From NCBI GenBank assembly GCA_017963805.1, contig JAGCTE010000044.1, positions 5,921-69,920 of the forward strand: DNA of 64,000 nucleotides, given 5' to 3'. The notes under the pieces were generated by a model that was given only the letters and a program-made list of their open reading frames with translations, was not told the DNA's origin and did not search any database. A program made the position numbers and the translations under genes. Source of the stretch: a bacterium (GTDB taxonomy: Bacteria > Auribacterota > UBA3054). Below, in pieces: positions 8,185-49,146 of the stretch (position 1 is its first letter; each line of letters starts with the position of its first letter).

Positions 8185-8188
8185 AGTT

Positions 8189-10276: not shown

Positions 10277-10279
10277 AGT

Positions 10280-12382
10280 TTATTTGTTTTTGGTTTTTAA
10301 AAGAGCTAAGACAAAAAAAGCGAACAGGAAGAGTCCCGGTTCGGGAACCACTTCGGAATCCACGCCGGAAACGGCAAGCGAAAACGTTTGTGGGCCCTGC
10401 ATGACGTTGTAGCCCTTCACGGCTACCTTTATGTTGCCGCTTGGCAATTCGTCCGACCTGAACCGCTCCACGTTGTTTATGGAGTCGCAGTGTTCGCCTG
10501 AGCCGTCGCAATAGTATTCGTATCCGCCGCAGGAAACTGAGATGTCAAGGTCGTTCACAAGCGCGATCTCGGCGCCGACCGTCCCGGGATAGTCGTTCCA
10601 GACCAAGGTTGCCGAGACCGGCCCGGGGGAGGATTTGGCGAAGACGTAGGCGACTTCGGCGTCCGTGTCGTCAATGACGCCGTCGTGAAGGAAAAGCTTG
10701 CCGACTTTAGGCTTTAAGCTTTCGGCCAGGTCGACGTGCCCGAAGCCGTTGACGCAGTTGGGATCTTCCGCGGGTATCTCCGTGTAGCCCTCGTACTGCC
10801 CGGTCCCCATGTTCCTGGCGCCGTTAATCAGGAGCGCCTTGACAAGCGAGGCGGAGGGATAAGTGAAGCCCTGTTCAATGAGGAACTGCATGGCGTCCGC
10901 CGCGGCTCCCGTCGTCAGGGGCGTCGCCATGGAGGTGCCTTCCATTACGGTGTAGTAGCTGCTCCTGGTCCCGTTGTTTTTACTGTCCCAAAGAGATTCC
11001 GTCGAGATTATCTGGGTCCCGGGAGCGACAATGTCCGGTTTGAATCTTCCGTCCCTGGCGGGACCGCGGGATGAGAAATAAGCCATGCCCTGCTGGGTGC
11101 CGTTCTGCGGGGAAGCAGTGAGGTCCGTATTGAAAGGCGCCGCCACGTTGGAGTAAAGGCTGCCGTAGGTGAAGGGTCTGTCGGGACGGTACGATTCCGC
11201 GGCGCCCACCGTGAGGACGTTTTTGGCGGCGGCCTGGGTGCTTAAGGTGCAGTTGTTTTCCGTATCTATCTTTTTGTTGCTGTTGCCGGCCGCGAAAAGG
11301 ATCAGGAAATCCGGGTTGTTATAGGTGGCAACGTCGTAGAAAAGAGACGAAGTAGTGTATTTCCCGGCGATGTCGGTGCTGTACGCTCCCCAGCTGTTGT
11401 TCATGACGCGGGCGCCGCTGTCGTAGGCGCCGCCCATATCCGCCATTTCGGGAGGATAGACGCTGGAAGAGTTGCCTCCGATGCAGATGAAGTAAAGAGA
11501 CGCATCCGGAGCGGTCCCGGCGTAAGTGCCGTTTTCATGGGCGCCGGTTCCGACCGCGGAGCCGCTGACATGGGTGCCGTGCCCGTTGAGATCGCGCCAG
11601 TCAGTCCTTTCGGTGTTTTTAGAAGCGACGACGCCTATCACGTCCTTGTTCTGGAAGTCCGGATGAATGTCACTTGGGTCTCCGCTGTCAAGACCGGTGT
11701 CCGCGACGCAGACCATGATCCCTTTTCCGGTGTAGCCCAGGGTGTTCATCGCGTCGACGTTCATGACAACTTCGCTTCTGGCGGCGTTGTTAAAGATCTT
11801 CGCCTCTACTTCCTCCTCCACGCTGAGAACGTCGGAACGGAGGACAAGCTTGTCGACAAGATCTATGCCGCAGACCGCCCTTAAGATAGGAGGACGCTCG
11901 CAGAGCAAAGAAACATCCTTCGCGCCTTCTTCCTTGAGGAAAGCGATAACGGTCGCCGTTTCGTCAGGGCCTGTCAAAATAATGTTCAGTTTGACTTCGC
12001 TTCCAGCGCTGAAAAATCTGCCCGTGGGAAGGCCGTTCTTGTATTCCGGAAGATATTCGCTGACGTAAAGCAAAGGATGTTTCTCTTCCAGACTTTTCAG
12101 ATCTTCCGGCGCGGCGAGGACTATGTAGGCGTTGGGGGGAACGAAGCCGATGAAGGAAACGCCCGCTTCTTTCAGCGCGGCGCGCTCCTTGTTCGTGAAA
12201 TTCTTCACGGGCTGTATGAGGTATTGATAGCAGCCGTTCTGGTCGGGGGCGCAGCGCTTTTCTCCCTTCGCCATAATAGAAGGCGCCGAAGGATCAAGGG
12301 AAACATCCCTTAACCTAATGAGGCCTGGATCGGCCGCGGAAATGAGCGCTCCCAAAAGAAGCGGGACAAGTATTTTTTTCAT
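10280..12382 (-). CDS. S8 subtilase (KP-43-like) with PEP-CTERM anchor, paralog 1
   Basis: VADTG, HGTHVSG, AAGN, EGTSMATP. Tail VPEPGLFLFAFFVLALLKTKNK. Start placed at MKKIL (12382) because GGAGG is suitably spaced; alternative ATG at 12391. Confidence 0.92.
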   Translation of the reverse strand: MKKILVPLLLGALISAADPGLIRLRDVSLDPSAPSIMAKGEKRCAPDQNGCYQYLIQPVKNFTNKERAALKEAGVSFIGFVPPNAYIVLAAPEDLKSLEEKHPLLYVSEYLPEYKNGLPTGRFFSAGSEVKLNIILTGPDETATVIAFLKEEGAKDVSLLCERPPILRAVCGIDLVDKLVLRSDVLSVEEEVEAKIFNNAARSEVVMNVDAMNTLGYTGKGIMVCVADTGLDSGDPSDIHPDFQNKDVIGVVASKNTERTDWRDLNGHGTHVSGSAVGTGAHENGTYAGTAPDASLYFICIGGNSSSVYPPEMADMGGAYDSGARVMNNSWGAYSTDIAGKYTTSSLFYDVATYNNPDFLILFAAGNSNKKIDTENNCTLSTQAAAKNVLTVGAAESYRPDRPFTYGSLYSNVAAPFNTDLTASPQNGTQQGMAYFSSRGPARDGRFKPDIVAPGTQIISTESLWDSKNNGTRSSYYTVMEGTSMATPLTTGAAADAMQFLIEQGFTYPSASLVKALLINGARNMGTGQYEGYTEIPAEDPNCVNGFGHVDLAESLKPKVGKLFLHDGVIDDTDAEVAYVFAKSSPGPVSATLVWNDYPGTVGAEIALVNDLDISVSCGGYEYYCDGSGEHCDSINNVERFRSDELPSGNIKVAVKGYNVMQGPQTFSLAVSGVDSEVVPEPGLFLFAFFVLALLKTKNK

Positions 12383-12387
12383 GTCTG

Positions 12388-14367
12388 TCATTCCTCCGTA
12401 AGCTCCGCGTTCAAGTTTTGCAGAAGGACTCCGCTTTCCCTGTGCAGCCTCAGGAAAGCGAAAGGTTCCGGGCTGACCTTCATGGACTGCCTTTTGTTGA
12501 TGTTGAAGTCCAGGGGTTCAAGGGAAAAATTAATGACGGCGTAGTCGAGATAATCGCCCGCGGCTATCTCGAAAACCAGCGCGTCCTTTTCTATTTCAAG
12601 CCTGACAAGGCTTTTAACTTTCGGAACGGAGTCGTAAACTTCGTGCAGCGCGGCGAAGCGGGTCTCCTTGACGTTTTCCCTGCGGGCTATCACCATGTTC
12701 CCGTCGGTCGTGCGGTAATGCGTGATCTCCCCGGTCCTGGCTATGTCGCCGCCGTCCCTGGCGGTTAAAAGCCTTGTCGCGCTCTGGCCCAGCATGATCG
12801 TTCTCAGGCCGTTTCCGAAGTCGCATCCCCACTGCGCCGAAGCCAGCTGCGACGTGACGTCTTCCAAGGTCTGGTAGGCGGGCTCTCTGTAGGCCGCGCC
12901 CAGAAAGCTCTTAGCTATGTCTTTTATCTCGTAGCTGTTTTCGGGAGCGGTCGCGCCGGTAAGGCTCGGGCTCTTTTGACTCTCGGAGTGCATCACCCAA
13001 TCGGCGGTGAAGGGGGAATCCGCTTTCAGCGTGAAGATGTCAAGAAGGTAATCGTCCGTCATGAAGAACGTCCGGCGGTAATTCTTCATGGCGGGATAAG
13101 CGTCGGTCCCGTCCAGGTCGAGGAAGGTTATCCCCTGCTTGCATTGGGAGCGCAGTATCTTCGCGCTCGCGGCGGACTGTCTTTTGAAATCGATGACTGC
13201 GGTGGAGGAAGACAAAGTGTGCGTAGCGAAATCCCTGCCGATCAAAGAGCGCCCGTCCTGCCCCTGGCGGCGTCCCATCTGGGTTTTGCCGCTTCCGGAA
13301 AAGACAAACGACAAAAGATCGCCGAAGCGTCCGCCGCTGGTCTTTATCACTCTAAGGTAGCGCGCCCCGCTTCCTTTTTGCACGCGGGAGCGGGCGGTTA
13401 TCCAGCCGGAACCCGCCGGGCTCTTGAGGAGCGGAAGCCTCGGGTACGCCGCGGCCTTCCTTGCCGAAGCGTAGTAGAAGACCGCGTCAAAGGGAGACTC
13501 CAGCGCCGCAGCCCTCAGGTCTCTCAAGGCCAGGCCGCAGCGCAGCGCCACTATAAAGGAGACAGCGGGCGAAAAAGCGGCGTCCCCTTCCCAGCCGCGT
13601 CCCGGCAGAACGTCGGCGGTATCCTTCAGTTCGTTCAGCGCGCAGGCCCATTTCTTCACGGCGCCGTCCCTGTAAAGGTCGCACCCTTTGCCAAGCAATG
13701 TCTCCGCGGCGAAGCAGACATTCTCCAAAAGGCTCATTGAAACGCCGACTTCCATGGCGGTGAACATGCCGTCTGAGTTGAGCATTGAAAGCATTCCCCT
13801 TATCTCTTCCGGCGCTCCGACGCTCTGGCGCCCGGTTGCGGCCGCGGCCAACGCTTTGAATAAGGTACAGAACCAGCCGGCCGTTTTGTCGTCAAGGTCG
13901 AACTCCTTGTCCTGAGCCCTTGAAACGAGCCAGGAATCCGCCTCTGGTCTTTCCTCCGGCTTCATGGAATTCCTCAGGGCCGCGTGCGATTTGGCAAGCG
14001 TTGCGAAACTTCTTCTCTGGGCCATGGGCTTGGGATAATCCCGCCTGACTTCGCGGTAGAGGGAGAGCGCGTCCTGGATAAGATAGACGTCCTTGTTCTT
14101 CAAGCCGAGCAGAGTCTTGGCCCAGATGCGCTCTATCTTTTCCTCCGTCCCGGTTACGGGATCGAACTTCCCTTTTTCGGTGGCGTTCCCGCCCCTGGAC
14201 AATTCCTCGACCTTGTTCCAGAGAAGCGGGCTCTCGACTTTCCTCAGAGCCGCGGAGAGTTCCTGGGTGTTTTCCACCTTGTATTGGTCGCAAACGGGCC
14301 AGACGGAAGCGTTGGCGCAAAGCGTCAGGACAAAAAGGGAAAGGAATATTGCAAGTTCGCGAAGCAT
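12388..14367 (-). CDS. Secreted heparinase II/III-like (alginate lyase PL15/17-type fold) protein, apparently degenerate
   Basis: Signal peptide and helical N-terminal half. C-terminal AYP...YRRTFFMTDDYLLDIFTLKADSPFTADWVMH resembles the heparinase II/III beta-domain. Confidence 0.55.
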   Translation of the reverse strand: MLRELAIFLSLFVLTLCANASVWPVCDQYKVENTQELSAALRKVESPLLWNKVEELSRGGNATEKGKFDPVTGTEEKIERIWAKTLLGLKNKDVYLIQDALSLYREVRRDYPKPMAQRRSFATLAKSHAALRNSMKPEERPEADSWLVSRAQDKEFDLDDKTAGWFCTLFKALAAAATGRQSVGAPEEIRGMLSMLNSDGMFTAMEVGVSMSLLENVCFAAETLLGKGCDLYRDGAVKKWACALNELKDTADVLPGRGWEGDAAFSPAVSFIVALRCGLALRDLRAAALESPFDAVFYYASARKAAAYPRLPLLKSPAGSGWITARSRVQKGSGARYLRVIKTSGGRFGDLLSFVFSGSGKTQMGRRQGQDGRSLIGRDFATHTLSSSTAVIDFKRQSAASAKILRSQCKQGITFLDLDGTDAYPAMKNYRRTFFMTDDYLLDIFTLKADSPFTADWVMHSESQKSPSLTGATAPENSYEIKDIAKSFLGAAYREPAYQTLEDVTSQLASAQWGCDFGNGLRTIMLGQSATRLLTARDGGDIARTGEITHYRTTDGNMVIARRENVKETRFAALHEVYDSVPKVKSLVRLEIEKDALVFEIAAGDYLDYAVINFSLEPLDFNINKRQSMKVSPEPFAFLRLHRESGVLLQNLNAELTEE

Positions 14368-16001
14368 CAGAGGTATCCGAGGTCTTTCAGTCTTTCCTGA
14401 AGTTTTTCTTCGTTCTCGTCGACGGTCTTTTCCGCCTGCCCGTAGGGCGCCTCTTTGTAACGCCTGACGGTCGGTTCCTCCGTCAGCGCTTCCGCAAGGA
14501 CTTTCCCGTCCAGGTCATCGGACAGCGGAATGCCCATGAGCGCAAGGATCGTAGGCGTCACGTCCATAATGGAGGCAGAGATCGTTTCGCCCTGCCTTAC
14601 GCCTTTCCCCTGCAGCATGTAGATCCCGTACTGGCGGTGGTCGCCGGACCTCGGCTGGCCGTGCTGCGTGGAAGGCATGACGGTCTTTTCCGCGAAGCCC
14701 TGGTTGAAGGAATAGCCTACGGCCGGCTCAAGGTAGAGGTCGGAGGCGTTTTTGACAAAGTCTCCTTTGAAAACTTCCTTCGCCTTGAAAACTTTCGCTA
14801 TGACCTTCGTTCCGTCCTCGTCCCTCATTTCAAGCAGGTCGTTTGCGAGCTTTTCCAAAAACTCGTCGCAGTCTTTTTCATCCATGACGCCGCTCGCTTC
14901 CCTGCCCTTCATGTTCAGCCTGACGGAGCGGGCGGACATGGAGGAGAAATAAGCCTTCGTAGTCTCCCAGTCGACGGCGGAAAGAGCCGTGGCGGAACGC
15001 ACCGTCTCGGCGCCGGCGCCGCCAATGGCGGAACGCTTCTCAAGCTGCGCCCTGCGGTGCTTGAGATAAATTTGCCAGAGCCCGAGTCTGTCGAGCGCGG
15101 ACGCTGTCACAAGTTTCCATTTCGCGACTTTGCCGACGTTCACCGCGTCGAGCCCCTCCTTCACGGAAAGATAGCCCTTGTCCCTCAAATAATTGTTGAC
15201 GTAGATGTCTTTTTTCACCTCACCGAAGCCGTGGTCGCTGATCGCCATGACGTAAACGTTCCCGGGAAGCGTGTCCAGAAATTTCCCCAAAAGGGAATCA
15301 AGGAAAACGAAATGGTCTTTGAAAAGGTTGGCGTACGGCCCCCGCTTCTCCACCATGCTCTCTTTCCAGAAGAAATGGAAAAGCCTGTCCATCTCGACGA
15401 AACAGAACATGGCGAAATGCGGCTTCAGTTCGGCATAGAGTTCCGTGAAAACTTTGAACTGCTCCTCGCAATGGGCGTTGACGCCCTTGACGAAGGAGGC
15501 GAAATCGCCTTCGTGCAGAAAGCGCGAGGGCATGTCGACTTTGAAATTCGGATGCTCCCTTTTTATCCGCTTCTTCAATTCGGGAGGATACGTGTACTCG
15601 CAGTCCCACTCGGGAGTGCCGAAACCGGTAATGAGATATCCGTTCACCGGTTCGGGAGGATAAGTGTGCGGCACGTTCATGACCAAAACTCTCCCGCCTT
15701 CATTGGAGACGTAGTTCCAGACCGCGCGGCAGCGCCTGTCTTTCCTGCTGGTCAGATGCACGTCATAATCGGATCCGCTGTAAGAGAAGAAATCGAATAT
15801 GTTGTGCTTGCCGGGATTGCGCCCTGTTACGGAAGACGTCCAGCCCGGAGGCGTCAGAGGAGGGGTCGTTGAGTCAAGGGGACCGTGGACGCCCTTGTAA
15901 AGTCTCGCGAAATTGGGAAGCGCGCCCTCTTTGATCAAAGGCTCAATGACGGACCAGTCGGCGCCGTCAAGGCCCAGTACAAAAGTTCTTACATCATTCA
16001 T
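14367..16001 (-). CDS. Alkaline phosphatase superfamily nucleotide pyrophosphatase/phosphodiesterase-like protein
   Basis: LGLDGADW, STTPPLTPPGWTSSVTG.NPGKH, DRLFHFFW, SDHGF, GDHR, C-terminal ERLKDLGYL. Confidence 0.88.
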   Translation of the reverse strand: MNDVRTFVLGLDGADWSVIEPLIKEGALPNFARLYKGVHGPLDSTTPPLTPPGWTSSVTGRNPGKHNIFDFFSYSGSDYDVHLTSRKDRRCRAVWNYVSNEGGRVLVMNVPHTYPPEPVNGYLITGFGTPEWDCEYTYPPELKKRIKREHPNFKVDMPSRFLHEGDFASFVKGVNAHCEEQFKVFTELYAELKPHFAMFCFVEMDRLFHFFWKESMVEKRGPYANLFKDHFVFLDSLLGKFLDTLPGNVYVMAISDHGFGEVKKDIYVNNYLRDKGYLSVKEGLDAVNVGKVAKWKLVTASALDRLGLWQIYLKHRRAQLEKRSAIGGAGAETVRSATALSAVDWETTKAYFSSMSARSVRLNMKGREASGVMDEKDCDEFLEKLANDLLEMRDEDGTKVIAKVFKAKEVFKGDFVKNASDLYLEPAVGYSFNQGFAEKTVMPSTQHGQPRSGDHRQYGIYMLQGKGVRQGETISASIMDVTPTILALMGIPLSDDLDGKVLAEALTEEPTVRRYKEAPYGQAEKTVDENEEKLQERLKDLGYL

Positions 16002-39117: not shown

Positions 39118-40524
39118 ATGTCTTCTTCTCTGCCACGCACGAAAATCAAGGAACTGTTCCGTTCCTTTTCCGAATCCAAAGAAGTCCTTGTCAAGGGCTG
39201 GGTGAGGACCCGCCGCGACAGCAAGGGCGGTTTCTCATTCCTTGAAATAAACGACGGCTCCTGCTTCGACAACATCCAGGCCGTCGTTCCCAATACGCTT
39301 CCCAACTACGAGAGCGAAGTTTTGAAGCTGACGACCGGCGCCAGCGTCGCCGTAAGAGGCAAAGCCGTGGCGGCCGAGGGACGCAAGCAGAGCGTCGAGA
39401 TCCAGGCGGAGGAAGTTCTGGTCTACGGCTTCGCCGACCCCAACGAATATCCGCTCTTCAAGCAGAGGATGTCGGTAGAGTACCTCCGCGACATAGCGCA
39501 CCTCCGCCCCCGCACCAACATAATCGGCGCCATGGAGAGGGTGAGGAACTGCGCCGCCATGGCCATCCACGAATTCTTCCAGAGCAGGGGCTTCGTCTGG
39601 GTGCACACGCCGCTCATCACGACCGCCGACTGCGAAGGCGCCGGGCAGATGTTCAAGGTCACCACTCTCGATCTCAACGCGCTTCCCAGAACCGAGGACG
39701 GCGCCGTCGACTACAAGGAGGACTTCTTCGGCAAGCCTTCCTTTCTGACAGTATCGGGGCAGCTGGACGCCGAGAACTACGCCTGCGCCCTTGGCGACGT
39801 CTACACTTTCGGCCCGACCTTCAGGGCCGAGAATTCCAACACGCCGCGCCACCTCGCCGAGTTCTGGATGGTGGAGCCGGAAATGGCTTTCGCGGACCTC
39901 AACGACAACATGGAGATCGCGGAGGCTTTCGTAAAGCACATCGTCAGGACCGTGCTGGAAAAATGCCCCGACGAGATCGCTTTCTTCGACCAGCGCGTGC
40001 AGCCCGGACTTAAATCCCAGCTAGAAGAGATACTGGGCCAGGAATTCGAGCGCTGCACCTACACGAGGGCCCTGGAGATCCTTTCCGCATCCGGCCGCAA
40101 GTGGGAGTTCCCCATCAATTGGGGCGACGATCTGCAGACCGAGCACGAGCGCTATCTCACGGAAGAATATTTCAAGAAGCCCGTCTTCGTCATCGACTGG
40201 CCGGCCTCCCTGAAGCCCTTCTACATGAAAGTGAACGACGACGGCAAGACCGTGCGCGCCATGGACTGCCTTGTCCCCCGCTTCGGCGAAATAATTGGCG
40301 GCAGCCAGCGCGAGGAAGACCTTTCCGTCATGGATAGGCGCATAGAGGAGCTCGGCATGAAGAAAGAGGAGTACTGGTGGTACAGGGACCTCAGGCGCTT
40401 CGGCACCGTCCCCCACTCCGGCTTCGGCTTGGGATTCGAGAGGATCATTCTCTTCGTCACCGGCATCGCCAACATCAGGGACGTCATCCCATTCCCCAGG
40501 ACTCCCAGGAACGCCAATTTCTAA
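39118..40524 (+). CDS. asnS: Asparagine--tRNA ligase
   Basis: [63 protein letters not shown]. Confidence 0.98.
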
Positions 40525-40527
40525 AAA

Positions 40528-41136
40528 ATGAGCGAAGAGAAAAACATCGTCTGGCACAAGCAGAGCGTGACTAGGGAGCTCAGGGAAAAAGCGAACGGCC
40601 ACAAGGGCTGCGTCCTTTGGTACACCGGGTTGTCGGGCAGCGGCAAATCGACCGTCGCCAACGAGGTCGAGAAAAAGCTTATGGCTCTCGGCGTGAAAAG
40701 CTACCTCCTTGACGGCGACAACATAAGGCACGGTTTGAATTCCGACCTCGGCTTCACCAAGGAGGACCGCGAGGAGAACATAAGGCGCATCGGCGAAGTG
40801 GCGAAACTCTTCGCGGATTCCGGAACGGTGACCGGGGTGGCTTTCATCTCCCCCTACAGATCCGACAGGAAAAGGGCCAGGGACATAGTGGAGAGCTCCG
40901 GGCTGGATTTCATAGAGATCTATGTGAAGTGCCCCCTTGAAGTCTGCGAGCAAAGAGACCCTAAGGGACTCTACAAAAAAGCCAGGCTCGGGGAGATCAA
41001 AAACTTCACCGGGCTCGACGCTCCCTACGAGGAGCCGACGACATGCGAGCTGGTCCTCATGAGCTCTTCGGCCCCGCCGGCGGAGCTTGCGGACAAAGTC
41101 TTAGAAACGTTAAAGCAAAAACACATTTTGTTGTAA
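40528..41136 (+). CDS. cysC: Adenylyl-sulfate kinase
   Basis: [46 protein letters not shown]. Confidence 0.96.
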
Positions 41137-41181
41137 AATAGACTTGTGGCCCCTTTAAAAACCAGGCGGCCCCTAAAAAAG

Positions 41182-42117
41182 ATGCTCAAGTATTTCAACA
41201 TTTCAGTTTTGGCAATGCTTCTTGTTTTCTCGCTCGACGGCTGCAAGAAAGAAAAGAACGAACCGGAGAAGCCCGTTGGCGAAGTTAAAGAGACCAAAGA
41301 CATGGGCGCGAGAGCTCCCCGCAAAAAGATCAAGGACACTCTTTCCGGCCTCGAGGAAGAGGACCGCGCCGCGGCCCTGAAGCTTCTCAGGGAAGAACAC
41401 CGCGAGCAAAAGAACAAGAAGGAGGAAGAGGAGAACGTCGAGATGACGCCCGGCTTCTTCCCCGTCTCGGACGGCGCCAAGCAGCTTATCGACGAAGCCA
41501 ACCTCCTGCTGCGCCAGGGCGCCGACACGGACAGCAAGATAGAAGCCCTGGAAAATCTGATCGGTATCGACCATCCTGACATACTGCCGACCATAGAGCT
41601 CGCCCTTGACGACGAAGACCCCGTCGTCAGGGAAGTGGCGCTGGACGCCATCATGAACATCAACAGCGAGGAAGTCGTCCCTGTCGTCGTGAAAGCGCTC
41701 GACGACCCCGAACCGGATCTCAGGCTAGTCTCACTGGACGCCTTGATGGACGTAAAAAGCCCGAGCATCAACGACGCCCTGCAGAAGGCCATGAAGGACG
41801 AGAGCGAGGAAGTGAGGGAAGGCGTCATGGACCTGCTCTTCATCTCCGAAAACCCCGCGGCGCTCCCGACCATCAAGACGGCCTTCGCCGATTCCAGCCC
41901 GGCCATCAGGGAAGGCGCGCTGATGTGCATCGAGGACATAAGGGACAAGGGCGCGCTCGACATCCTCATCTACGACGGCATGCTCAGCGATTACGAGGAC
42001 GTCAGGGAGGCGAGCAAGGAAGCGCTGGAGTTCATCACCGACGAAGAGTTCGAGACTTACGACGAAGCCAAGGACTGGTGGAGCAAGAACCGCGACTCCT
42101 TCGAGTTTGATTTTTAA
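41182..42117 (+). CDS. Acidic HEAT-repeat lipoprotein
   Basis: MLKYF...LDGC lipobox. Repeats ALDDEDPVVREVA, ALDDPEPDLRLVS, MKDESEEVREGV, ADSSPAIREGA, SDYEDVREAS. Confidence 0.8.
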   Translation: MLKYFNISVLAMLLVFSLDGCKKEKNEPEKPVGEVKETKDMGARAPRKKIKDTLSGLEEEDRAAALKLLREEHREQKNKKEEEENVEMTPGFFPVSDGAKQLIDEANLLLRQGADTDSKIEALENLIGIDHPDILPTIELALDDEDPVVREVALDAIMNINSEEVVPVVVKALDDPEPDLRLVSLDALMDVKSPSINDALQKAMKDESEEVREGVMDLLFISENPAALPTIKTAFADSSPAIREGALMCIEDIRDKGALDILIYDGMLSDYEDVREASKEALEFITDEEFETYDEAKDWWSKNRDSFEFDF

Positions 42118-42119
42118 AG

Positions 42120-43607
42120 ATGAAGATCTCCATAAGCTATCCTCCCCTTCCGAGCGAGCTGGGAGTTCCGCTCCTTGGTCAGAACCGCCAGTTCCAGTAC
42201 TTCCACAAGCCGACCTACATCTACCCGATGGTGCCGGCTTACGCCGCTTCGCTCCTTAAGGAAAACGGCCACGAAGTATTTTGGCAGGACGGCATAGCGG
42301 AGAAAAAAACTTACGACGAATGGGAAAAGGAGCTGCTTGGCGTTTCCCCCGACATCGTCGTCTTCGAGAGCAAGTGTCCGGTAATAGAGAAGCACTGGAA
42401 ACTTATAGACAGCCTTAAGGAAAAACTTCCGGAAACGCTTTTCGTTTTGGTCGGCGACCACGTCACGGCAAGGCCATTGGAATCTTTTTCCAATTCCAAG
42501 GTCGACATCGTCATAACTGGCGGCGACTACGATTTCCTGCTTCTCGACCTAGCAAATCATCTGGAAAAAGGAACGCCGCTCCCTCCCGGCTTCTACGTAA
42601 GCGAAATCGCGAAGCGCGTAAAAGTTGAGAACGCGGAAGAAAAGGACGGCGTTTTCTTCACCGGGAAAGCGCTTCTTGATCACGACGTCAACTCCCTCCC
42701 CTTCATCGACAGGGATCTGACCAAATGGCGTCTCTACGCCTACGAGAACGGCAACTTCAAATACCCGCCGGGGACCTACACTTATTCCGGCCGCGACTGC
42801 TGGTGGGGAAAGTGCACCTTCTGCGTCTGGGACAACACCATTAATCCCTGCGGCAGCTACCGCAGCTTTTCTCCCGAGCGGCTTTTCGCCGAAGTGAAGC
42901 ATATAATCGACAATTATCACGTGAAAGAGATCTTCGACGACGCCGGCAGCATGTTCGCCGGGGACAGGATGAAGAAATTCTGCCGCCTTTTGATCGAGAG
43001 CGGCTACAATAAGAAGGCGGTCTTCGGCTGCAACATGCGCTTCGACGGCATGGACAAAGAAGGCTACGACCTTATGAAGAAAGCCAATTTCCGCTTCGTC
43101 CTCTTCGGCCTCGAATCCGGCAACCAGAAGACCCTGGACCGCATAAATAAGGGCATCACTCTCGAGCAGATCGAAAAGGGCGCCAAGCTCTGCAAAGAAG
43201 CCGGGCTCCAGCCGCACGTGACCTTGATGCTCGGCTACCCTTGGGAGACTCTGGAGGATGCCAAAAGGACCGTCGATTTCGCGAAACGGCTTTTCAAGCT
43301 CGGCTACATCGACACGTTGCAAGCGACCGTCTGCATTCCCTATCCCGGAACGCCTCTTTACAAAGAATGCGAGGAAAACGGATGGCTGCTGACGAAAAAT
43401 TATTCCGACTACGATATGCGCGGCATGGTCATGAAGTCCCCCATCAGCGAAAAAGAGCTCATGGATCTCACGCGCCAGATATACCGCTCTTTTATGAGCC
43501 CCTCCTTCATCTGGCGCAAAATTATCGGGATCCGCTCGTTTTCCGACATAAAATTCCTCTTTACGGCCAGCCTTAGGGTTCTGGGACATCTTACTGATTT
43601 CAGCTAA
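42120..43607 (+). CDS. Cobalamin-binding radical SAM protein
   Basis: CWWGKCTFC (CxxxCxxC), N-terminal B12-binding-like region, FGLESGNQ, GYPWET, PYPGTPLY. Confidence 0.9.
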   Translation: MKISISYPPLPSELGVPLLGQNRQFQYFHKPTYIYPMVPAYAASLLKENGHEVFWQDGIAEKKTYDEWEKELLGVSPDIVVFESKCPVIEKHWKLIDSLKEKLPETLFVLVGDHVTARPLESFSNSKVDIVITGGDYDFLLLDLANHLEKGTPLPPGFYVSEIAKRVKVENAEEKDGVFFTGKALLDHDVNSLPFIDRDLTKWRLYAYENGNFKYPPGTYTYSGRDCWWGKCTFCVWDNTINPCGSYRSFSPERLFAEVKHIIDNYHVKEIFDDAGSMFAGDRMKKFCRLLIESGYNKKAVFGCNMRFDGMDKEGYDLMKKANFRFVLFGLESGNQKTLDRINKGITLEQIEKGAKLCKEAGLQPHVTLMLGYPWETLEDAKRTVDFAKRLFKLGYIDTLQATVCIPYPGTPLYKECEENGWLLTKNYSDYDMRGMVMKSPISEKELMDLTRQIYRSFMSPSFIWRKIIGIRSFSDIKFLFTASLRVLGHLTDFS

Positions 43608-43656: not shown

Positions 43657-43686
43657 TTGATTTTAAGTCATACCTTATAGTATAAT
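43657..43686 (+). promoter_or_regulatory. Sigma70-type promoter for CotH paralog 1
   Basis: TTGATT (43657-43662), 18-bp spacer, TATAAT (43681-43686). Confidence 0.6.
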
Positions 43687-43721
43687 CGGACGCTGGTTTT
43701 ATCAATTTGGAAAAAATCCCA

Positions 43722-46391
43722 ATGAAATCAGTGCTCAAAACAATTCTCTTTCTGGGCCTTAGCGCCCTCTCAGTTCGCTCAGAACTTCCCTCCAATCTCG
43801 TCTCAGCCAACTGGATCGAATCCGAAGGCGGCTACATCAACACCGGCATCAACCAGTACGGCTCTTCCCTTTCCGAACTTGACTGCGTTTTAGAGTTCAC
43901 CACCCTCAATTACCCCAAGCGGCGCCTTATGGGTTTCAACGGCGCCGGCCCGAAGAACTACGTGGGCATCAGCCCCGACAACAAGTTCGACCTTTGGAAC
44001 GTTTCCCAAATGGAAGCCGAGTCGAACGTCAAATACCACTTGCATCTTACACAGGACCCCGTGGTCGCCGTGCTTGACATATATAGTTATAACGAAAATC
44101 CCGAGAACGAAGTCCTTCTGGAGAAGATGGTCTGCAACGCCAACGGCATCAACAATAGCGAATGCCAGCTCTTCATCATCGCCTCCAATCCGAACTACCA
44201 CTGCTACGACGTCAGGCTCTACAACTTCAAGATCCTTCTTGACGGCGAGCTGAAAAGGGATTTCTCCCCTGTCATGGACATAGAATCCCACAAGGCCGGA
44301 ATGTATGACAGCGTGAGCGGCGAGACCTTTTACGCCAGCAACGAAGGCAAACTGATCTGCGACGCCCTTGATTACTCTTACGGTGAAGGCGAAAGCAAGG
44401 TCTGCCCTGACGGCGACACCCTCTACCTCCCCTCCTACGCCGACTACTCCAACCTCGACGCTCTCCGCTTCCCCGCCGGCACCGTTCTTTCCGGCACCAC
44501 CGGCGAAAACCTGACCGTGGGCACGGACGCCCTTGACATGCGCGTGCTTTTCGGCGACGACATGGAAGCCGGCGAAAGGTATCCTGTGACTGTCAGCTTC
44601 CCCTCCGGCGCCGCGACGAGCTTCTACCTCGCCAAGAGCGCCAACATCCCCGCCCTCTTCGTCAACCTCGACGCCACAAGCGTTGAGATGATCAACAAGA
44701 GCAAGGCCAATTCCGCTTCCGGCGCGGCGCTGAAGATCGCCCCCGACGGCACCGCATCCCCGCTTCTCGAGGTCAAGAAGTTCGCGGGCCGCGGCAACAC
44801 GAGCTGGACTTATTCCGGCGACAAGAAGCCTTACAAGATCAACCTGGCCGAGAAATACAATTTGATCGCTTCCAAAAGCCCCAACAAAAAATTCGCCCTG
44901 CTCTCGCTTAACCTGCAGGACAGAAAAGACCGCAGCTGCCTCAAGGAATTCGTCGCCCACGAGCTGGCTGAGTCTATGGACATGAGCTTTGTCCCTGGCA
45001 TGGAATTCGTCGACCTCTACGTCAACGGTTCCTACCGCGGCATCTATGTCATCAAGGAACGCATAACCATCGGGTCCGACAGGATCAACATCCACGAACC
45101 GAAATTCCTCTATGAGGACGAAACTTCCACCACGAGAGTGGTGCAGCAAAGCGGCATCAAGGGCGTTGACGGAGCCGAGGGCGACGAGGGCGATGAGGAG
45201 CCCTTCAAAGTCTCCAGCTGGAACGTTCCGGCAGCCACCGAGACCATCTTAAGCGAGAACGACGATGAAGACCCCGCTTTGAAAGCCGGCATCCAGGCTT
45301 ACCAGTACGCCACCGGCTCACAGCTCCAGGGCGGCAAGGACGGCGGCGTGATCATCGAAATGAACGTCTGCTATTCCGCCTACTTATATGACGAGCCCAG
45401 CTTTTTCATCACCAGGAGAGGCCAGATATTCAACCTGAAGACCTCCGAGTGCGGCACCAAGGAGCAAGTCCAGAGGATCGCGATCTTCGTGCAGGAAATG
45501 GAGGACGCCCTCTTCAGCGAGACCGGCTTCAACGCCAAGGGCAAACATTATTCGAAATACATCGATGTCGCCAGCATGGCCAAGCACGTCGCTCTGGACG
45601 GCTTCATGGCCAACTCCGACTTCTGCATCATCAGCACTTACTTCTACATCGACGCCAACCCCGCTACCGGCGAATATATCGGAAAGCTCAAGGCCGAGCC
45701 GGTTTGGGACTACGATTTCGCCCAGGTCAATTCCAGCCACATCTACGTCAACAGCGCCAGCAGGATGTGCTACGTTCCCCACTTCTTCAACAAGGCGGAC
45801 TTCGTCAAGGCCCTCTATGAGATCCAGAATGACGAGACCGGCTTCACTAAGAGGATCGCCGAACTGAACGGCGGCGAACTGGACGATCTGGCCGCTAAGC
45901 TTATGCCCACCTACAAACTGAATTTCCTCAGATGGGGCAGCGACTCCGTATTCGACAGCGAAGTCCTCAGGAACAGCATGAGGACCAGAGAGGCCAGCTG
46001 GAACAGCCTCTGGAAACCGGATACACAGCTCCTGGGCGCCTGGGTGGACGAAGCCCCCGCTCCCCAGTATTCCTTCTTCTCCTTCAACGCTTCCGAATCC
46101 GCTGACATTTCCGTCTTCAATTACGGCACCGCCGGCGAATACCAGTGGTACAAGCTTGATGAGGAAGACAACTCCCTGAAAGCCATCGAGGGCGAGACGG
46201 AAGCGACCATAGATCCCACCTATTACGGCAAAGGCGAATACGTCTGCGCCATCAGCGGCGTCAACCTGGAGCCCCAGGCCGGCGGTCAGAACGTGACGCT
46301 CTACACCGCTCCCTTTGTTTTCGGCGCTCCGGAGCCCGGAATGATCGGAATGCTCCTTGCCGCGACGGCTTTTTTGCTTCGCAGAAAGTGA
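43722..46391 (+). CDS. CotH-family kinase with N-terminal lectin/LamG-like domain and PEP-CTERM anchor, paralog 1
   Basis: Signal peptide MKSVLKTILFLGLSALSVRS. GRGNTSW, KKPYKINL, FVDLYVNGSYRGIY..KER, NSD, PVWDYD. Tail APEPGMIGMLLAATAFLLRRK. Confidence 0.85.
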   Translation: MKSVLKTILFLGLSALSVRSELPSNLVSANWIESEGGYINTGINQYGSSLSELDCVLEFTTLNYPKRRLMGFNGAGPKNYVGISPDNKFDLWNVSQMEAESNVKYHLHLTQDPVVAVLDIYSYNENPENEVLLEKMVCNANGINNSECQLFIIASNPNYHCYDVRLYNFKILLDGELKRDFSPVMDIESHKAGMYDSVSGETFYASNEGKLICDALDYSYGEGESKVCPDGDTLYLPSYADYSNLDALRFPAGTVLSGTTGENLTVGTDALDMRVLFGDDMEAGERYPVTVSFPSGAATSFYLAKSANIPALFVNLDATSVEMINKSKANSASGAALKIAPDGTASPLLEVKKFAGRGNTSWTYSGDKKPYKINLAEKYNLIASKSPNKKFALLSLNLQDRKDRSCLKEFVAHELAESMDMSFVPGMEFVDLYVNGSYRGIYVIKERITIGSDRINIHEPKFLYEDETSTTRVVQQSGIKGVDGAEGDEGDEEPFKVSSWNVPAATETILSENDDEDPALKAGIQAYQYATGSQLQGGKDGGVIIEMNVCYSAYLYDEPSFFITRRGQIFNLKTSECGTKEQVQRIAIFVQEMEDALFSETGFNAKGKHYSKYIDVASMAKHVALDGFMANSDFCIISTYFYIDANPATGEYIGKLKAEPVWDYDFAQVNSSHIYVNSASRMCYVPHFFNKADFVKALYEIQNDETGFTKRIAELNGGELDDLAAKLMPTYKLNFLRWGSDSVFDSEVLRNSMRTREASWNSLWKPDTQLLGAWVDEAPAPQYSFFSFNASESADISVFNYGTAGEYQWYKLDEEDNSLKAIEGETEATIDPTYYGKGEYVCAISGVNLEPQAGGQNVTLYTAPFVFGAPEPGMIGMLLAATAFLLRRK

Positions 46392-46406
46392 TCGCTCTGC
46401 AAAAAT

Positions 46407-46437
46407 GCCCCCGGCTCAAACCGGGGGCTTTTTGTTT
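46407..46437 (+). terminator. Rho-independent terminator
   Basis: GCCCCCGG-CTCAAA-CCGGGGGC followed by TTTTTGTTT, 15 nt after the stop codon. Confidence 0.88.
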
Positions 46438-46443
46438 GACAAT

Positions 46444-46472
46444 TTGATTTTTCCCCTTAAAAGAAATATAAT
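46444..46472 (+). promoter_or_regulatory. Sigma70-type promoter for CotH paralog 2
   Basis: TTGATT (46444-46449), 17-bp spacer, TATAAT (46467-46472); same hexamers as paralog 1. Confidence 0.65.
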
Positions 46473-46503
46473 TTTAGACAAGAGATATCGCCGTAAAAGC
46501 CGC

Positions 46504-49146
46504 ATGGAAACCCAAAAGATCATAATATCCGTCCTTTTCCTCGCCTGCTGCGCCCTTGGCGCCAGATGCGAGCTACCCAATGGCCTTGCTCCCGCAAACT
46601 GGATCGAGACCAAGGGCGGATACATCCCCACGGGCATAACCCAATCCGGCGCGACGACGGTCGAGCTTGACTGTCTTCTGGAAGTCACCTCTCTCTACTA
46701 TTCGAAAAGACGCCTGATGGGTTTTGACGGCGCCGGTCCCAAGAACTATTTCGGCGTGACCACCAACAATCATTTCGAGATCTGGAACCCCACCGTCCTT
46801 ACAGCCGAATTAGGCGTCAAATACCGCCTGCACATGACCCAGAACAAGACCACCACCCTGCTGGAAGTCTTCTCCGAGGCAGGCGCGCTCCTAGATTCCG
46901 TCACCGGCAACGCCAAGGGCATCAACAGCAGCGAATGCCAGATCTTCACCATCAACTCAAGCTCCGCCTACACTTGCTACGGAATTAGAGTCTACGATTT
47001 CAAGATCATAATAGACGGAGACGTCAAAAGGGACCTCGTCCCGGTCTTCGACTATACGGCGGGAAAGCCAGGCATGTACGACAGCATCAGCCAAACAACG
47101 CTCTACGCCTACGGCAGCGGCAAGCTTGACTGCGACGCCCTTGATTTTCACTACGGTTCCGGTGACACCAAGATATTGCTTGAAGAGGGAGCCATGTATT
47201 TCCCCTCCCACATCGGCTTCGAAGACCTCGGCGAATTTTCCTTCCCGGAGGGCACCGTTTTGAGAGGGACCGAAGGGGGAGCCAGCCTGACCGTGGGCGA
47301 AGACACTCTGGATATGCGGACCATTTTCGGCGCTGACATGCGGCCCGGGGAAAGGTATCCCCTTAGCGTGGAATTCACCTTCGGCCTGGTGACGAATTTC
47401 TATATCGCAAAAAGCGCAAACATTCCTTCGCTTTTCGTGAACCTTATAGACGCCGATCTGGCTTTCATACACAGGAACAAGAAAAACGAAGCCGCCGCCG
47501 TCGCCCTGAAGATCGAGCCTGACGGAACTTCCTCCGAGCTTCTCCCTGTCAAAAAGTTCGCCGGCCGCGGCAACGCCACCTGGACTTATTCCGGCGACAA
47601 GAAGCCCTACAAGATCAACCTGGAATCGAAATACGCCCTCATATCCTCCGCCCCCAAAAGCAAAAAATTCGCCCTGCTCTCCCTGAACCTTCAAAACAAC
47701 AAGGACCGCAGCGGGCTCAAGGAATACGCGGCCCACGAGCTGGGGGATGCCATGGGCATGGGCTTCAATCCTGACTCTGAATTTGTTGACCTTTACGTCA
47801 ACGGTTCGTACCGCGGTTTCTACATGATAAAAGAACGCGTGACCATCGATCCCGACAGGATCAACATCAACGAGCCGAAATACAGTTTTGAGGACGAGGA
47901 GTCCACCACAAGAGTCGTTCAGCGAAACGGCATCAAGGGCGTCAAAGGCGCCGCGGGCGATCCCGACGACGGCGAGCCCGTCTCAGCCTCCAGCTGGAAC
48001 GTCCCCTCCCCCACGGAGACGATCACGAGCGAGAACGACGATGATGATCCCGCGCTCAAGGCCGGGATCCAGGCTTACCAATATGCCACAGGTTCCCGCC
48101 TAAAAACGGATAAGGAAGGCGGCGCGGTCATCGAGATGAACGCCTGCTACAGTCAGTACATGCAGGATGAGCACGTCTTCTTCATCACCAGGCGCGGCCA
48201 GATCTTCACCCTGAAGATCCCCGAAGTCGCAACGAAGGAACAGGTCCGGAGGATCGCGATCTTCGTCCAGGAATTCGAAGACGCCCTCTTCGGGGAAAAA
48301 GGTTTCAACTCGCTTGGCAAACATTATTCCGAATATCTGGACGTAGAGATCATGGCCAAGCACGTGATGGTGGACGGCTTCATGTACAACTCGGATTTCT
48401 GCATCCTCTCCACCTTCTTCTACATCGACGCCGATCCCGTAAGCGGTGAATTAAGGGGCAAACTCATAGCCGAGCCCATCTGGGATTACGATTTCGCCCA
48501 GATCAATTCCAGCCATATCTACGCCTCCAATTCCAATCCCATGAACTATCTGCCGCAATTCTTTTCCAAGGCTGATTTCATAAAGGCCCTGTACGAATTG
48601 CAAACGGATCCTTATGGTTTCCAATCAAGAGTCGCGCGGTTGAATTCCAACGACCTTTCCGCTCTGGGCGACAAGCTCAAGGCCGCGCATCAATTGAATT
48701 ATTTCCGCTGGGGCAGCGATTCCCAATCAGACGTGGCGACCATCAAAAGCAGGATGAGCTCGAGAGCGGGAAACTGGAACAATATTTTCAACCCGAACCA
48801 AAAGCTTTTGGGCGCCTGGGTGGAACAGGCCCAAACAAGGTCCCGCGCTATAATAGGCCCGCTGACCGTGGAGACCTACGGCACGCCGATATCGTACCAA
48901 TGGTACAAGCAGGACGCTGAGAGCGGCGAATTGACTGAGCTTGAGGGCGAGACAGGCTCAACTCTTGATCAGGAACAGTACGGCAAGGGACAGTACGTCT
49001 GCGGCGTCTACGGAAAAAATCTGGAGCCTCAGGCGGGCGGAACGTACGTGACGCTTTACACCGCGCCTTTCGCCTACGGACTTCCGGAGCCAGGACTGCT
49101 CGCTACTCTTCTTGCTTCCGCGGCCTTTCTACTCCGCAGGAAGTGA
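46504..49146 (+). CDS. CotH-family kinase with N-terminal lectin/LamG-like domain and PEP-CTERM anchor, paralog 2
   Basis: Start moved to METQKIIISVLFLACCALGARC, downstream of the terminator and promoter. GRGNATW, KKPYKINL, YVNGSYRGFY, PIWDYD. Tail LPEPGLLATLLASAAFLLRRK. Confidence 0.85.
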   Translation: METQKIIISVLFLACCALGARCELPNGLAPANWIETKGGYIPTGITQSGATTVELDCLLEVTSLYYSKRRLMGFDGAGPKNYFGVTTNNHFEIWNPTVLTAELGVKYRLHMTQNKTTTLLEVFSEAGALLDSVTGNAKGINSSECQIFTINSSSAYTCYGIRVYDFKIIIDGDVKRDLVPVFDYTAGKPGMYDSISQTTLYAYGSGKLDCDALDFHYGSGDTKILLEEGAMYFPSHIGFEDLGEFSFPEGTVLRGTEGGASLTVGEDTLDMRTIFGADMRPGERYPLSVEFTFGLVTNFYIAKSANIPSLFVNLIDADLAFIHRNKKNEAAAVALKIEPDGTSSELLPVKKFAGRGNATWTYSGDKKPYKINLESKYALISSAPKSKKFALLSLNLQNNKDRSGLKEYAAHELGDAMGMGFNPDSEFVDLYVNGSYRGFYMIKERVTIDPDRININEPKYSFEDEESTTRVVQRNGIKGVKGAAGDPDDGEPVSASSWNVPSPTETITSENDDDDPALKAGIQAYQYATGSRLKTDKEGGAVIEMNACYSQYMQDEHVFFITRRGQIFTLKIPEVATKEQVRRIAIFVQEFEDALFGEKGFNSLGKHYSEYLDVEIMAKHVMVDGFMYNSDFCILSTFFYIDADPVSGELRGKLIAEPIWDYDFAQINSSHIYASNSNPMNYLPQFFSKADFIKALYELQTDPYGFQSRVARLNSNDLSALGDKLKAAHQLNYFRWGSDSQSDVATIKSRMSSRAGNWNNIFNPNQKLLGAWVEQAQTRSRAIIGPLTVETYGTPISYQWYKQDAESGELTELEGETGSTLDQEQYGKGQYVCGVYGKNLEPQAGGTYVTLYTAPFAYGLPEPGLLATLLASAAFLLRRK

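Follow-up and report, generated by a model that had tools for sequence, protein, structure and literature searches.

Genes A and B are a tandem pair of CotH-family genes on the forward strand of a 64,000-nucleotide stretch of DNA, hereafter called the window (contig JAGCTE010000044.1, positions 5,921 to 69,920, of assembly GCA_017963805.1; GTDB lineage Auribacterota; UBA3054). The DNA comes from an uncultured rumen bacterium of a candidate phylum. The products of the two genes share an architecture in which a signal-peptide-like amino terminus is followed by a lectin-like domain, a beta-rich pre-kinase domain, a CotH atypical-kinase domain, an Ig-like domain and a PEP-CTERM-like tail. The explanation favored here, with a probability of roughly 0.55, is that A and B are PEP-CTERM-anchored extracytoplasmic phosphotransferases which modify a component of the surface or matrix that the amino terminus domain selects, that they are tied to a VTC-DUF4956 module, and that gene A is a duplicate.

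CotH domains occur widely among non-sporulating bacteria, archaea and rumen fungi, where many of the proteins that carry them are secreted or anchored. To our knowledge nobody has established the role or the phosphoryl donor of those found outside spores. A and B are viewed as an anchor-and-targeting variant of this known, unexplained extracellular class and not as a new kind of system. They carry the same catalytic module on a third kind of anchor, PEP-CTERM, together with a private lectin-like targeting domain. The tight link of CotH with VTC and DUF4956 in the phylum, their neighborhood in Bacteroidales and the corresponding reports from Firmicutes turn the donor question into one that can be tested at the bench. 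This concrete lead had escaped an earlier reading of the DNA made without database searches (the sequence-only reading).

Domain Architecture and Predicted Folds

The sequence-only reading had described two collinear CotH paralogs with a signal peptide, a lectin-like amino terminus domain and a PEP-CTERM anchor. Both open reading frames (ORFs; 43707..46391 and 46357..49146, forward strand) and this order of parts are borne out by the present analysis. The two proteins are 58% identical over their full length (893 alignment columns), and the architecture is kept in all 13 members of the family alignment (A1). A public protein of 889 residues (P0001) is 99% identical to the gene A product. The structure of the latter was modelled with AlphaFold2 from an alignment of 60 sequences (A2), giving a mean pLDDT (predicted local distance difference test) of 88.2 and a pTM (predicted template modelling score) of 0.78. 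Feature boundaries are listed in Table 1.

The amino termini of both proteins look, by eye, like Sec signal peptides. A lipoprotein signal considered for gene B was dropped, the residues preceding its Cys not fitting a lipobox by eye.

The domain that follows has a ConA/LamG-like jelly-roll fold. In a comparison of the whole model with VIA-align it aligns best with 4dqa, a putative carbohydrate-binding protein from Bacteroides ovatus (Z 13.7, root mean square deviation (rmsd) 3.2, 168 aligned residues), and it also resembles laminin G, PAPP-A and pentraxins at Z 12–13. The domain was also folded alone (pLDDT 75) and compared with 48,161 chains without Foldseek. It then matches the lectin wing of Vibrio cholerae sialidase (Z 10.3) and 4dqa (Z 9.7); behind these come laminin G, pentraxins, CBM66, galectins and legume lectins, and 21 chains reach Z ≥ 8. 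The assignment to this superfamily follows from the agreement of the two independent structure searches. No Pfam family besides CotH, Laminin_G_3 included, was found in A or B at E ≤ 0.1, so that “lectin-like” applies to the fold only. Note that the language-model features of this region (window 43782–44399) are nearest to clusters of hypothetical phage (Uroviricota) proteins of ~200–240 residues, at 0.94–0.95; the jelly roll may thus be of a receptor-binding type that phages also have.

The pre-kinase domain is common to the wider CotH subfamily, whose matches to it begin at about query residue 230. The kinase domain itself is recognized by the Pfam CotH model (PF08757) in both proteins, at 63.8 bits in A and 56.2 bits in B against a gathering cut-off of 23.8. 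The match falls in two stretches (positions 4–98 and about 130–263 of the model) because an insert of ~90 residues splits the domain. The corresponding part of the structural model superposes on the Bacillus cereus CotH kinase 5jd9 with Z 19.1 and an rmsd of 3.1 Å over 324 of 358 residues, and a Foldseek comparison of the gene A model with 5jda gives E 1.5e-9 and a TM (template modelling) score of 0.64. Of the checks that had been proposed, the profile search places both proteins in the CotH family, and the structure prediction yields the CotH kinase fold for A. The Ig-like domain is matched by the 60-sequence profile to the “Immunoglobulin-like domain protein” of Protein Data Bank (PDB) entry 9ncf_S (E 1.1e-6, four repeats). 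In a phmmer search of the genome (2.05 Mb, 74 contigs, 93% complete), the lectin-like, pre-kinase and Ig-like domains had no paralog beyond A and B.

Catalytic Residues and Their Conservation

The CotH motifs quoted by the sequence-only reading are all present, with little or no variation in the 13-member alignment. In A they read R357-G-N..W362, K368-P-Y-K-I, L432-Y-V-N-G-S-Y-R-G-x-Y..E446, N631-x-D633 (D in 11 of 13) and P660-x-W-D-Y-D665. When the PDB was searched by sequence, neither gene A by itself nor the 13-member profile found a match; the 60-member profile reaches 5jd9 at E 1.6e-4. Its alignment places N631-S-D633 onto N222-F-D224 and W662-D663-Y-D665 onto W246-D247-Y-D249 of the B. 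cereus protein. The D228Q and D251A mutants of Bacillus subtilis CotH are described as catalytically dead (PMC7821199). Since D224 and D247 on one side and D228 and D251 on the other are both 23 residues apart, D633 is taken as the equivalent of the catalytic Asp and D663 as that of the metal-binding Asp. We infer the step between the two Bacillus numberings from this spacing.

Across the 60 sequences W662 and D663 are kept in every case, and R357, K368, K389 and E446 are near-invariant among distant relatives. The column of D633 holds D in 50 sequences, E in 8 and N in 2. When A and B are compared domain by domain, the kinase parts are 62–71% identical, the LamG-like domain 54% and the pre-kinase domain 50%. 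A kinase core that is the best conserved part, with an invariant W662-D663, fits a kept active site. The two most divergent members of the close family (P0011 and P0012) carry Asn in the D633 column while keeping WDYD and the whole architecture, and may on this residue pattern be pseudokinases.

Sorting Signals and Cell Type

The tails of A and B are tripartite, with a PEPG motif, 13–14 hydrophobic residues and RRK at the extreme carboxyl terminus. Against the TIGR02595 hidden Markov model A scores 14.4 bits, below the cut-off of 16, and B gives no match; 2 of 13 family members match at E ≤ 10, and all TIGR02595 and NF038126 matches stay below cut-off. Note that the TIGR02595 model has 24 positions and that its cut-off is a naming threshold and not a biological definition. 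The PEP-CTERM anchor read earlier from the sequence thus holds by its tripartite tail and its genomic context and not by model score. That context comprises one exosortase gene (EpsH PF09721, 118.5 bits; TIGR04178, 55.9 bits against 23) with a fused EpsI domain, and 67 ORFs with PEP-CTERM-like tails found by regular expression, all five CotH ORFs of the genome among them.

Omp85 and LpxC are encoded and Spo0A_C was not found in the 93% complete genome, in agreement with the non-sporulating diderm that had been proposed. A regular-expression search of the genome for ORFs with Ser-Lys-Arg repeats like those of CotB and CotG gave no credible candidate; the 10 ORFs rich in Ser and Lys/Arg that it returned are apparently all off-frame artefacts. 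With neither Spo0A_C nor credible repeat ORFs, A and B are not functional orthologs of the spore-coat CotH.

Association with the VTC-DUF4956 Module

The genome codes for a VTC-type polyphosphate polymerase domain (140.3 bits) and a DUF4956 protein (59.9 bits) in adjacent genes on contig C46. They close a row that also holds a PEP-CTERM protein with two LTD domains and an HlyD/MFP-like adaptor, the latter a weak match of about 36 bits. The same order of four genes is found in another genome of the same order of bacteria (G009, locus L032). The DUF4956 protein has 3–4 hydrophobic spans and the VTC protein none. The row may be an envelope-spanning polyphosphate module.

CotH was found in each of the 18 genomes searched within the order, at 2–17 matches per genome, but in only 3 of the 23 sampled elsewhere in the phylum. 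Among these 41 relatives CotH and VTC occur together in 18 genomes, CotH only in 3 (64–80% complete), VTC only in none and neither in 20. Among 60 genomes of the phylum (≥85% complete) the corresponding numbers are 23, 1, 0 and 36; the two samples overlap and, related genomes not being independent, the counts overstate the association and do not amount to a statistical test. Splits within two genera of the phylum sample (g14 and g33) agree with it. CotH and VTC lie within 5 kb of each other in 9 of the 23 genomes of this sample that have both, and by their coordinates in at least 11 Bacteroidales genomes. In genome G026 the row reads VTC, CotH (LamG_3 + aBig_2 + CotH), DUF4956, CotH. Four of 14 control genomes have CotH, three of them together with VTC. 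A functional tie of many non-spore CotH proteins to VTC-DUF4956 is likely, without being obligatory.

Comparable gene sets are described in print. Papers on the Pel polysaccharide report cotH, a polyphosphate polymerase gene and a DUF4956 gene together in streptococci, clostridia and bifidobacteria (PMC7112168, PMC12345266). DUF4956 itself is barely treated in the literature searched, and the module is essentially unstudied there.

CotH Set and Duplication History

The five CotH ORFs of the genome are distributed over contigs C16, C18 and C68. The C18 set is a second tandem pair (locus L009, 1865–7807) of 1169 and 809 residues with LTD and CHB_HEX_C/Fn3_assoc domains, and the C68 protein (locus L010, 90–5675) has 1861 residues with three LTD domains and Laminin_G_3.

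Loci related to that of A and B come from ruminant-gut metagenome-assembled genomes and from bacterium UBP3_UBA3054 (NCBI: unclassified candidate phyla). They share a conserved synteny in which asparaginyl-tRNA synthetase, adenosine 5'-phosphosulfate (APS) kinase, a HEAT protein, a radical SAM protein and CotH are followed by convergent genes for proteins like glycoside hydrolase families 35 and 2 (GH35, GH2) and RecA. Both A and B are present in two of these loci (L012 and L013). In four others (L014, L015, L016 and L018) the flanking genes enclose just one CotH gene, which is nearer to B (62–67% identical). The copies of L017 and L020 likewise resemble B more (72% and 61%), on contigs that end within the first CotH copy, so that the copy number cannot be read there. 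Across the related loci the CotH orthologs are 62–72% identical while the flanking genes are 73–99% identical. In the genus, three of nine genomes have the tandem pair, five have one copy and none was seen in one (83% complete). The presence of the pair in 3 of 9 genomes and the single-copy orthologs closer to B mark gene A as a young duplicate that diverges fast.

A homolog search among 1.84 billion representatives gave 6907 matches at E ≤ 0.001. Of the best 150, which were listed, only P0005 covers the lectin-like domain, and no other starts before query residue 207. The best relatives from outside the family are multi-domain surface proteins of 33–40% identity, and among the best 30 of them scanned 10 carry SLH (S-layer homology) domains and one a dockerin. 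A PEP-CTERM-like tail is present in 12 of 14 close family members, whereas not one was found among 149 representatives or 37 distant matches. The SLH and dockerin domains of the relatives and the PEP-CTERM tails found here show one CotH subfamily carrying lineage-typical anchors.

Comparison with Known Systems

Secretory-pathway kinases of the Fam20C/Fam20B type are alike in principle: they, too, have a kinase-like fold and act on secreted proteins or glycans outside the cytosol. They use the ATP of the Golgi lumen, and we know of no comparable ATP pool at the bacterial surface and of no ATP supply for the periplasm. CotH is described as distantly related to these kinases (PMC7821199). A and B share with Bacillus CotH (PF08757; 5JD9/5JDA) the fold, the NxD and WDYD catalytic and metal-binding motifs and a Pfam score above cut-off. 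They differ from it by an identity of ~12–15%, by the ~90-residue insert and by the added LamG-like, pre-kinase, Ig-like and PEP-CTERM parts, as well as by their predicted export in a non-sporulating diderm in which CotB/CotG-like substrates were not found.

Extracellular CotH proteins are already in print, both cellulosomal (PMC12484212) and secreted by streptococci (PMC12345266). The surface-anchored CotH proteins of gut Firmicutes, together with cellulosomal CotH, are the closest outside relatives by sequence (33–40% identity over residues ~230–870, insert and Ig-like end included). They are unlike A and B in having SLH or dockerin anchors and, among the matches listed, in lacking the LamG-like domain, which occurs in the close family only. 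Cellulosomal CotH is presented as extracellular and anchored, with a role called unclear (PMC12484212). CotH joined to diversified ligand-binding ends is reported among the variable proteins of Bacteroides diversity-generating retroelements (DGR; bioRxiv 10.1101/2024.11.15.621889).

In Streptococcus intermedius the genes SIR_1592–1594, coding a membrane protein, a polyphosphate polymerase domain and a secreted CotH-FN3 protein, adjoin the pel genes. Deletion of SIR_1592 (the gene with four transmembrane segments) or of SIR_1594 (the secreted CotH-FN3 gene) is reported to lower Pel and aggregation (PMC12345266, PMC7112168). Like the present system it combines a secreted CotH in a non-sporulator with a VTC-type polymerase domain and a four-transmembrane DUF4956/MgtC-like protein. 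Unlike it, S. intermedius is a monoderm with the three genes adjacent, whereas the CotH genes studied here are unlinked from VTC-DUF4956, which follows the HlyD-like adaptor and the LTD PEP-CTERM protein. The PEP-CTERM/exosortase (EpsH) system is matched in its tripartite tail, its single exosortase with fused EpsI and its many tails per genome, and differs here in the score below cut-off. The literature search found no paper joining CotH and PEP-CTERM.

Proposed Function and Alternative Explanations

According to the favored explanation, A and B would be exported by Sec and then sorted by the exosortase to the envelope of a Gram-negative-type rumen bacterium, presumably to its outer surface. 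The fast-evolving ConA/LamG-like domain would serve for targeting and probably binds a glycan or another ligand. The CotH domain, with its intact catalytic and metal-binding Asp, would transfer phosphoryl groups, the Ig-like domain would act as a spacer and the PEP-CTERM tail as the anchor. Both proteins would belong to a set of five CotH genes, all with PEP-CTERM tails, functionally tied to one VTC-DUF4956 module. As gene A is a recent duplicate of an ancestral gene B, the pair would widen the range of targets and would not form a two-part machine. The term ecto-kinase used earlier would fit such proteins as the name of a predicted function.

A more specific version, which we hold tentatively and consider doubtful, is that polyphosphate made and exported by a VTC-DUF4956-HlyD-like route serves the anchored CotH enzymes. 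VTC would make polyphosphate from ATP in the cytoplasm, the DUF4956 protein with its 3–4 transmembrane segments would pass it through the inner membrane, as is the case for the yeast VTC complex at the vacuole, and the HlyD-like adaptor would carry it across the periplasm in this order of diderms. The CotH enzymes would then take polyphosphate instead of ATP as their donor, or else link it to polymers of the surface, and the amino terminus domains of the five paralogs (LamG, LTD and others) would pick different acceptors. If true, this route would explain how a kinase fold can work outside the bacterial cell.

Several points weigh against the favored explanation. ATP binding and phosphotransfer by A and B are predicted functions, read from fold and residue patterns. 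The Asn of P0011 and P0012, at the position where D228Q inactivates B. subtilis CotH, argues that catalysis is not needed in every member. Sugar binding by the lectin-like domain is a guess drawn from the modelled fold, and the TIGR02595 scores fall short of the cut-off. The VTC-DUF4956 genes on C46 stand beside no CotH gene, and the link is looser in 81 Bacteroidales genomes (both in 36, CotH only in 17, VTC only in 7, neither in 21). Among the control genomes B. subtilis has CotH without VTC, and the phylum counts are inflated by relatedness. Transcription of the pair, described in the next section, is suggested by RNA-library contigs that may stem from DNA carry-over and do not show the strand.

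A first alternative, in line with the ecto-kinases proposed by the sequence-only reading, is that A and B are classical ATP-dependent ecto-protein kinases. Their CotH domains would draw on ATP outside the cell, extracellular or leaked, and phosphorylate Ser/Thr on other surface proteins with PEP-CTERM tails in the way that CotH modifies CotB and CotG; VTC and polyphosphate would play no part. The only biochemically defined CotH proteins are indeed described as ATP-dependent Ser kinases (PMC7821199), the catalytic residues are kept, and at least 67 PEP-CTERM-like products of the genome are candidate substrates. Such kinases appear improbable given the missing CotB/CotG-like repeat ORFs, the lack of a known ATP supply outside the inner membrane and the near-perfect co-occurrence of CotH with VTC in the phylum, which they leave unexplained. 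A lectin-like targeting domain fits a protein target no better than a glycan, and nothing in the analysis points to PEP-CTERM proteins as the substrates. The proteins could instead be non-catalytic adhesins or matrix organizers in which the CotH fold is a binding or scaffold module, LamG and Ig domains attaching the cell to feed particles, host glycans or microbes. A role of this type has been proposed for the CotH invasins of Mucorales. The Asn-bearing members that keep the rest of the protein agree with it, as does the faster divergence of A/B-type proteins than of their neighbors, expected of exposed binding proteins, and “structural components” are among the roles suggested for cellulosomal CotH (PMC12484212). 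Adhesins are nonetheless judged unlikely, as the kinase core is better conserved than the amino terminus domains and its invariant and near-invariant residues fit a kept active site.

A further alternative is that the enzymes are aimed at foreign material in the rumen and phosphorylate glycans of plants or the host, or the surfaces of rival microbes or of phages. The convergent GH35-like and GH2-like glycosidase genes in the conserved synteny agree with it. The phage-like features of the lectin-like domain, a lead only, and the DGR variable proteins of Bacteroides mentioned above would also agree with such targets. The glycosidase genes are however on the opposite strand without an operon link, and the PEP-CTERM system is associated with a bacterium's own exopolysaccharide and biofilm (Haft 2006, cited in PMC6491731). 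This explanation is considered very unlikely. The anchored phosphotransferase acting on the cell's own surface or matrix remains the explanation that we prefer.

Flanking Signals, Transcription and Neighboring Genes

A promoter of its own with TTGATT and TATAAT elements had been proposed for each gene. Both elements are present 35–60 bases 5' of each start; a consensus scan of the region gave 5 such sites against 3.0 ± 2.0 in shuffled sequences, no excess over chance, so that only their placement just 5' of each start is suggestive. In an alignment of the upstream regions, which have diverged too far to demonstrate promoter conservation, single-copy orthologs have TTGC-like and TAAAAT-like elements ahead of the start. 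The terminator placed earlier between the genes is found again 3' of the gene A stop, as an all-GC hairpin of 8 bp with a T run. RNA-library contigs from four studies (sheep, bovine and other animal guts) match gene A in all four runs and gene B in three of them. They are 150–315 nucleotides long, at least 95% alike, and show neither strand nor transcript ends. No such contig covers the A–B spacer (46415–46816) or bridges both genes, a gap that, the data being contigs, is uninformative on separate transcripts.

Table 1. Coordinates of genes, protein domains, key codons and flanking signals (window positions unless a contig is named).
Feature	Position	Strand	Details
Promoter-like site, gene A	43657..43686	+	TTGATT-N18-TATAAT; consensus scan, 10/12 matches
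Gene A	43722..46391	+	ATG 43722 (MKSVLK...), likely start; 889 residues
Signal-peptide-like amino terminus of A, residues 1–20	43722..43781	+	MKSVLKTILFLGLSALSVRS then ELP; model helix 2–16 before first domain
ConA/LamG-like jelly-roll domain of A, residues 26–216	43797..44369	+	fold match
Beta-rich pre-kinase domain of A, residues 226–305	44397..44636	+	model strands
CotH atypical-kinase fold of A, residues 308–772	44643..46037	+	insert ~447–540
D633 codon, gene A	45618..45620	+	catalytic Asp equivalent (B. subtilis D228); profile alignment
D663 codon, gene A (WDYD)	45708..45710	+	metal-binding Asp equivalent (B. subtilis D251); profile alignment
Ig-like domain of A, residues 795–868	46104..46325	+	QWYK...Y-x-C; beta sandwich in model
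PEP-CTERM-like tail of A	46326..46388	+	PEPGMIGMLLAATAFLLRRK
Intrinsic-terminator-like hairpin and T run	46407..46438	+	hairpin 46407–46428, 8 G-C pairs, loop 6; then TTTTTGTTTG
Promoter-like site, gene B	46444..46472	+	TTGATT-N17-TATAAT; consensus scan, 10/12 matches
Gene B	46504..49146	+	ATG 46504 (METQKI...), likely start; 880 residues; architecture as in gene A
D631 codon, gene B	48394..48396	+	equivalent of D633; alignment to A
D661 codon, gene B	48484..48486	+	equivalent of D663; alignment to A
PEP-CTERM-like tail of B	C-terminus of 46504..49146	+	PEPGLLATLLASAAFLLRRK
2xLTD PEP-CTERM protein, HlyD/MFP-like adaptor, VTC, DUF4956	C46, locus L029, 6603–10634	-	row of four genes

In the window the upstream part of the conserved synteny (39118–43607, forward strand) codes for asparaginyl-tRNA synthetase, APS kinase (CysC), a HEAT-repeat lipoprotein-like ORF and the radical SAM protein, and it is found in six related loci. 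The APS kinase, without visible sulfate-activation partners nearby, may have a role in sulfation. In UBP3_UBA3054 (L013, 5965–8758) the gene A ortholog is split into a match of 753 residues and a fragment of 119 residues in another frame, either by a frameshift or by an assembly error.

Other parts of the window are also rich in PEP-CTERM-like tails. An ORF of 935 residues at 64–2871 (forward strand) ends in such a tail, with no Pfam domain at E ≤ 1e-5. Three tandem S8 subtilase paralogs of ~700 residues each, all with PEP-CTERM-like tails, are encoded at 6085–12391 (reverse strand), flanked by a CarboxypepD_reg-like protein and an ORF of 658 residues without Pfam domains. Adjoining this cluster, at 14367–16001 on the same strand, lies a gene for a type I phosphodiesterase/nucleotide pyrophosphatase (PF01663, 127 bits) whose product, if exported, could act on extracellular nucleotides.

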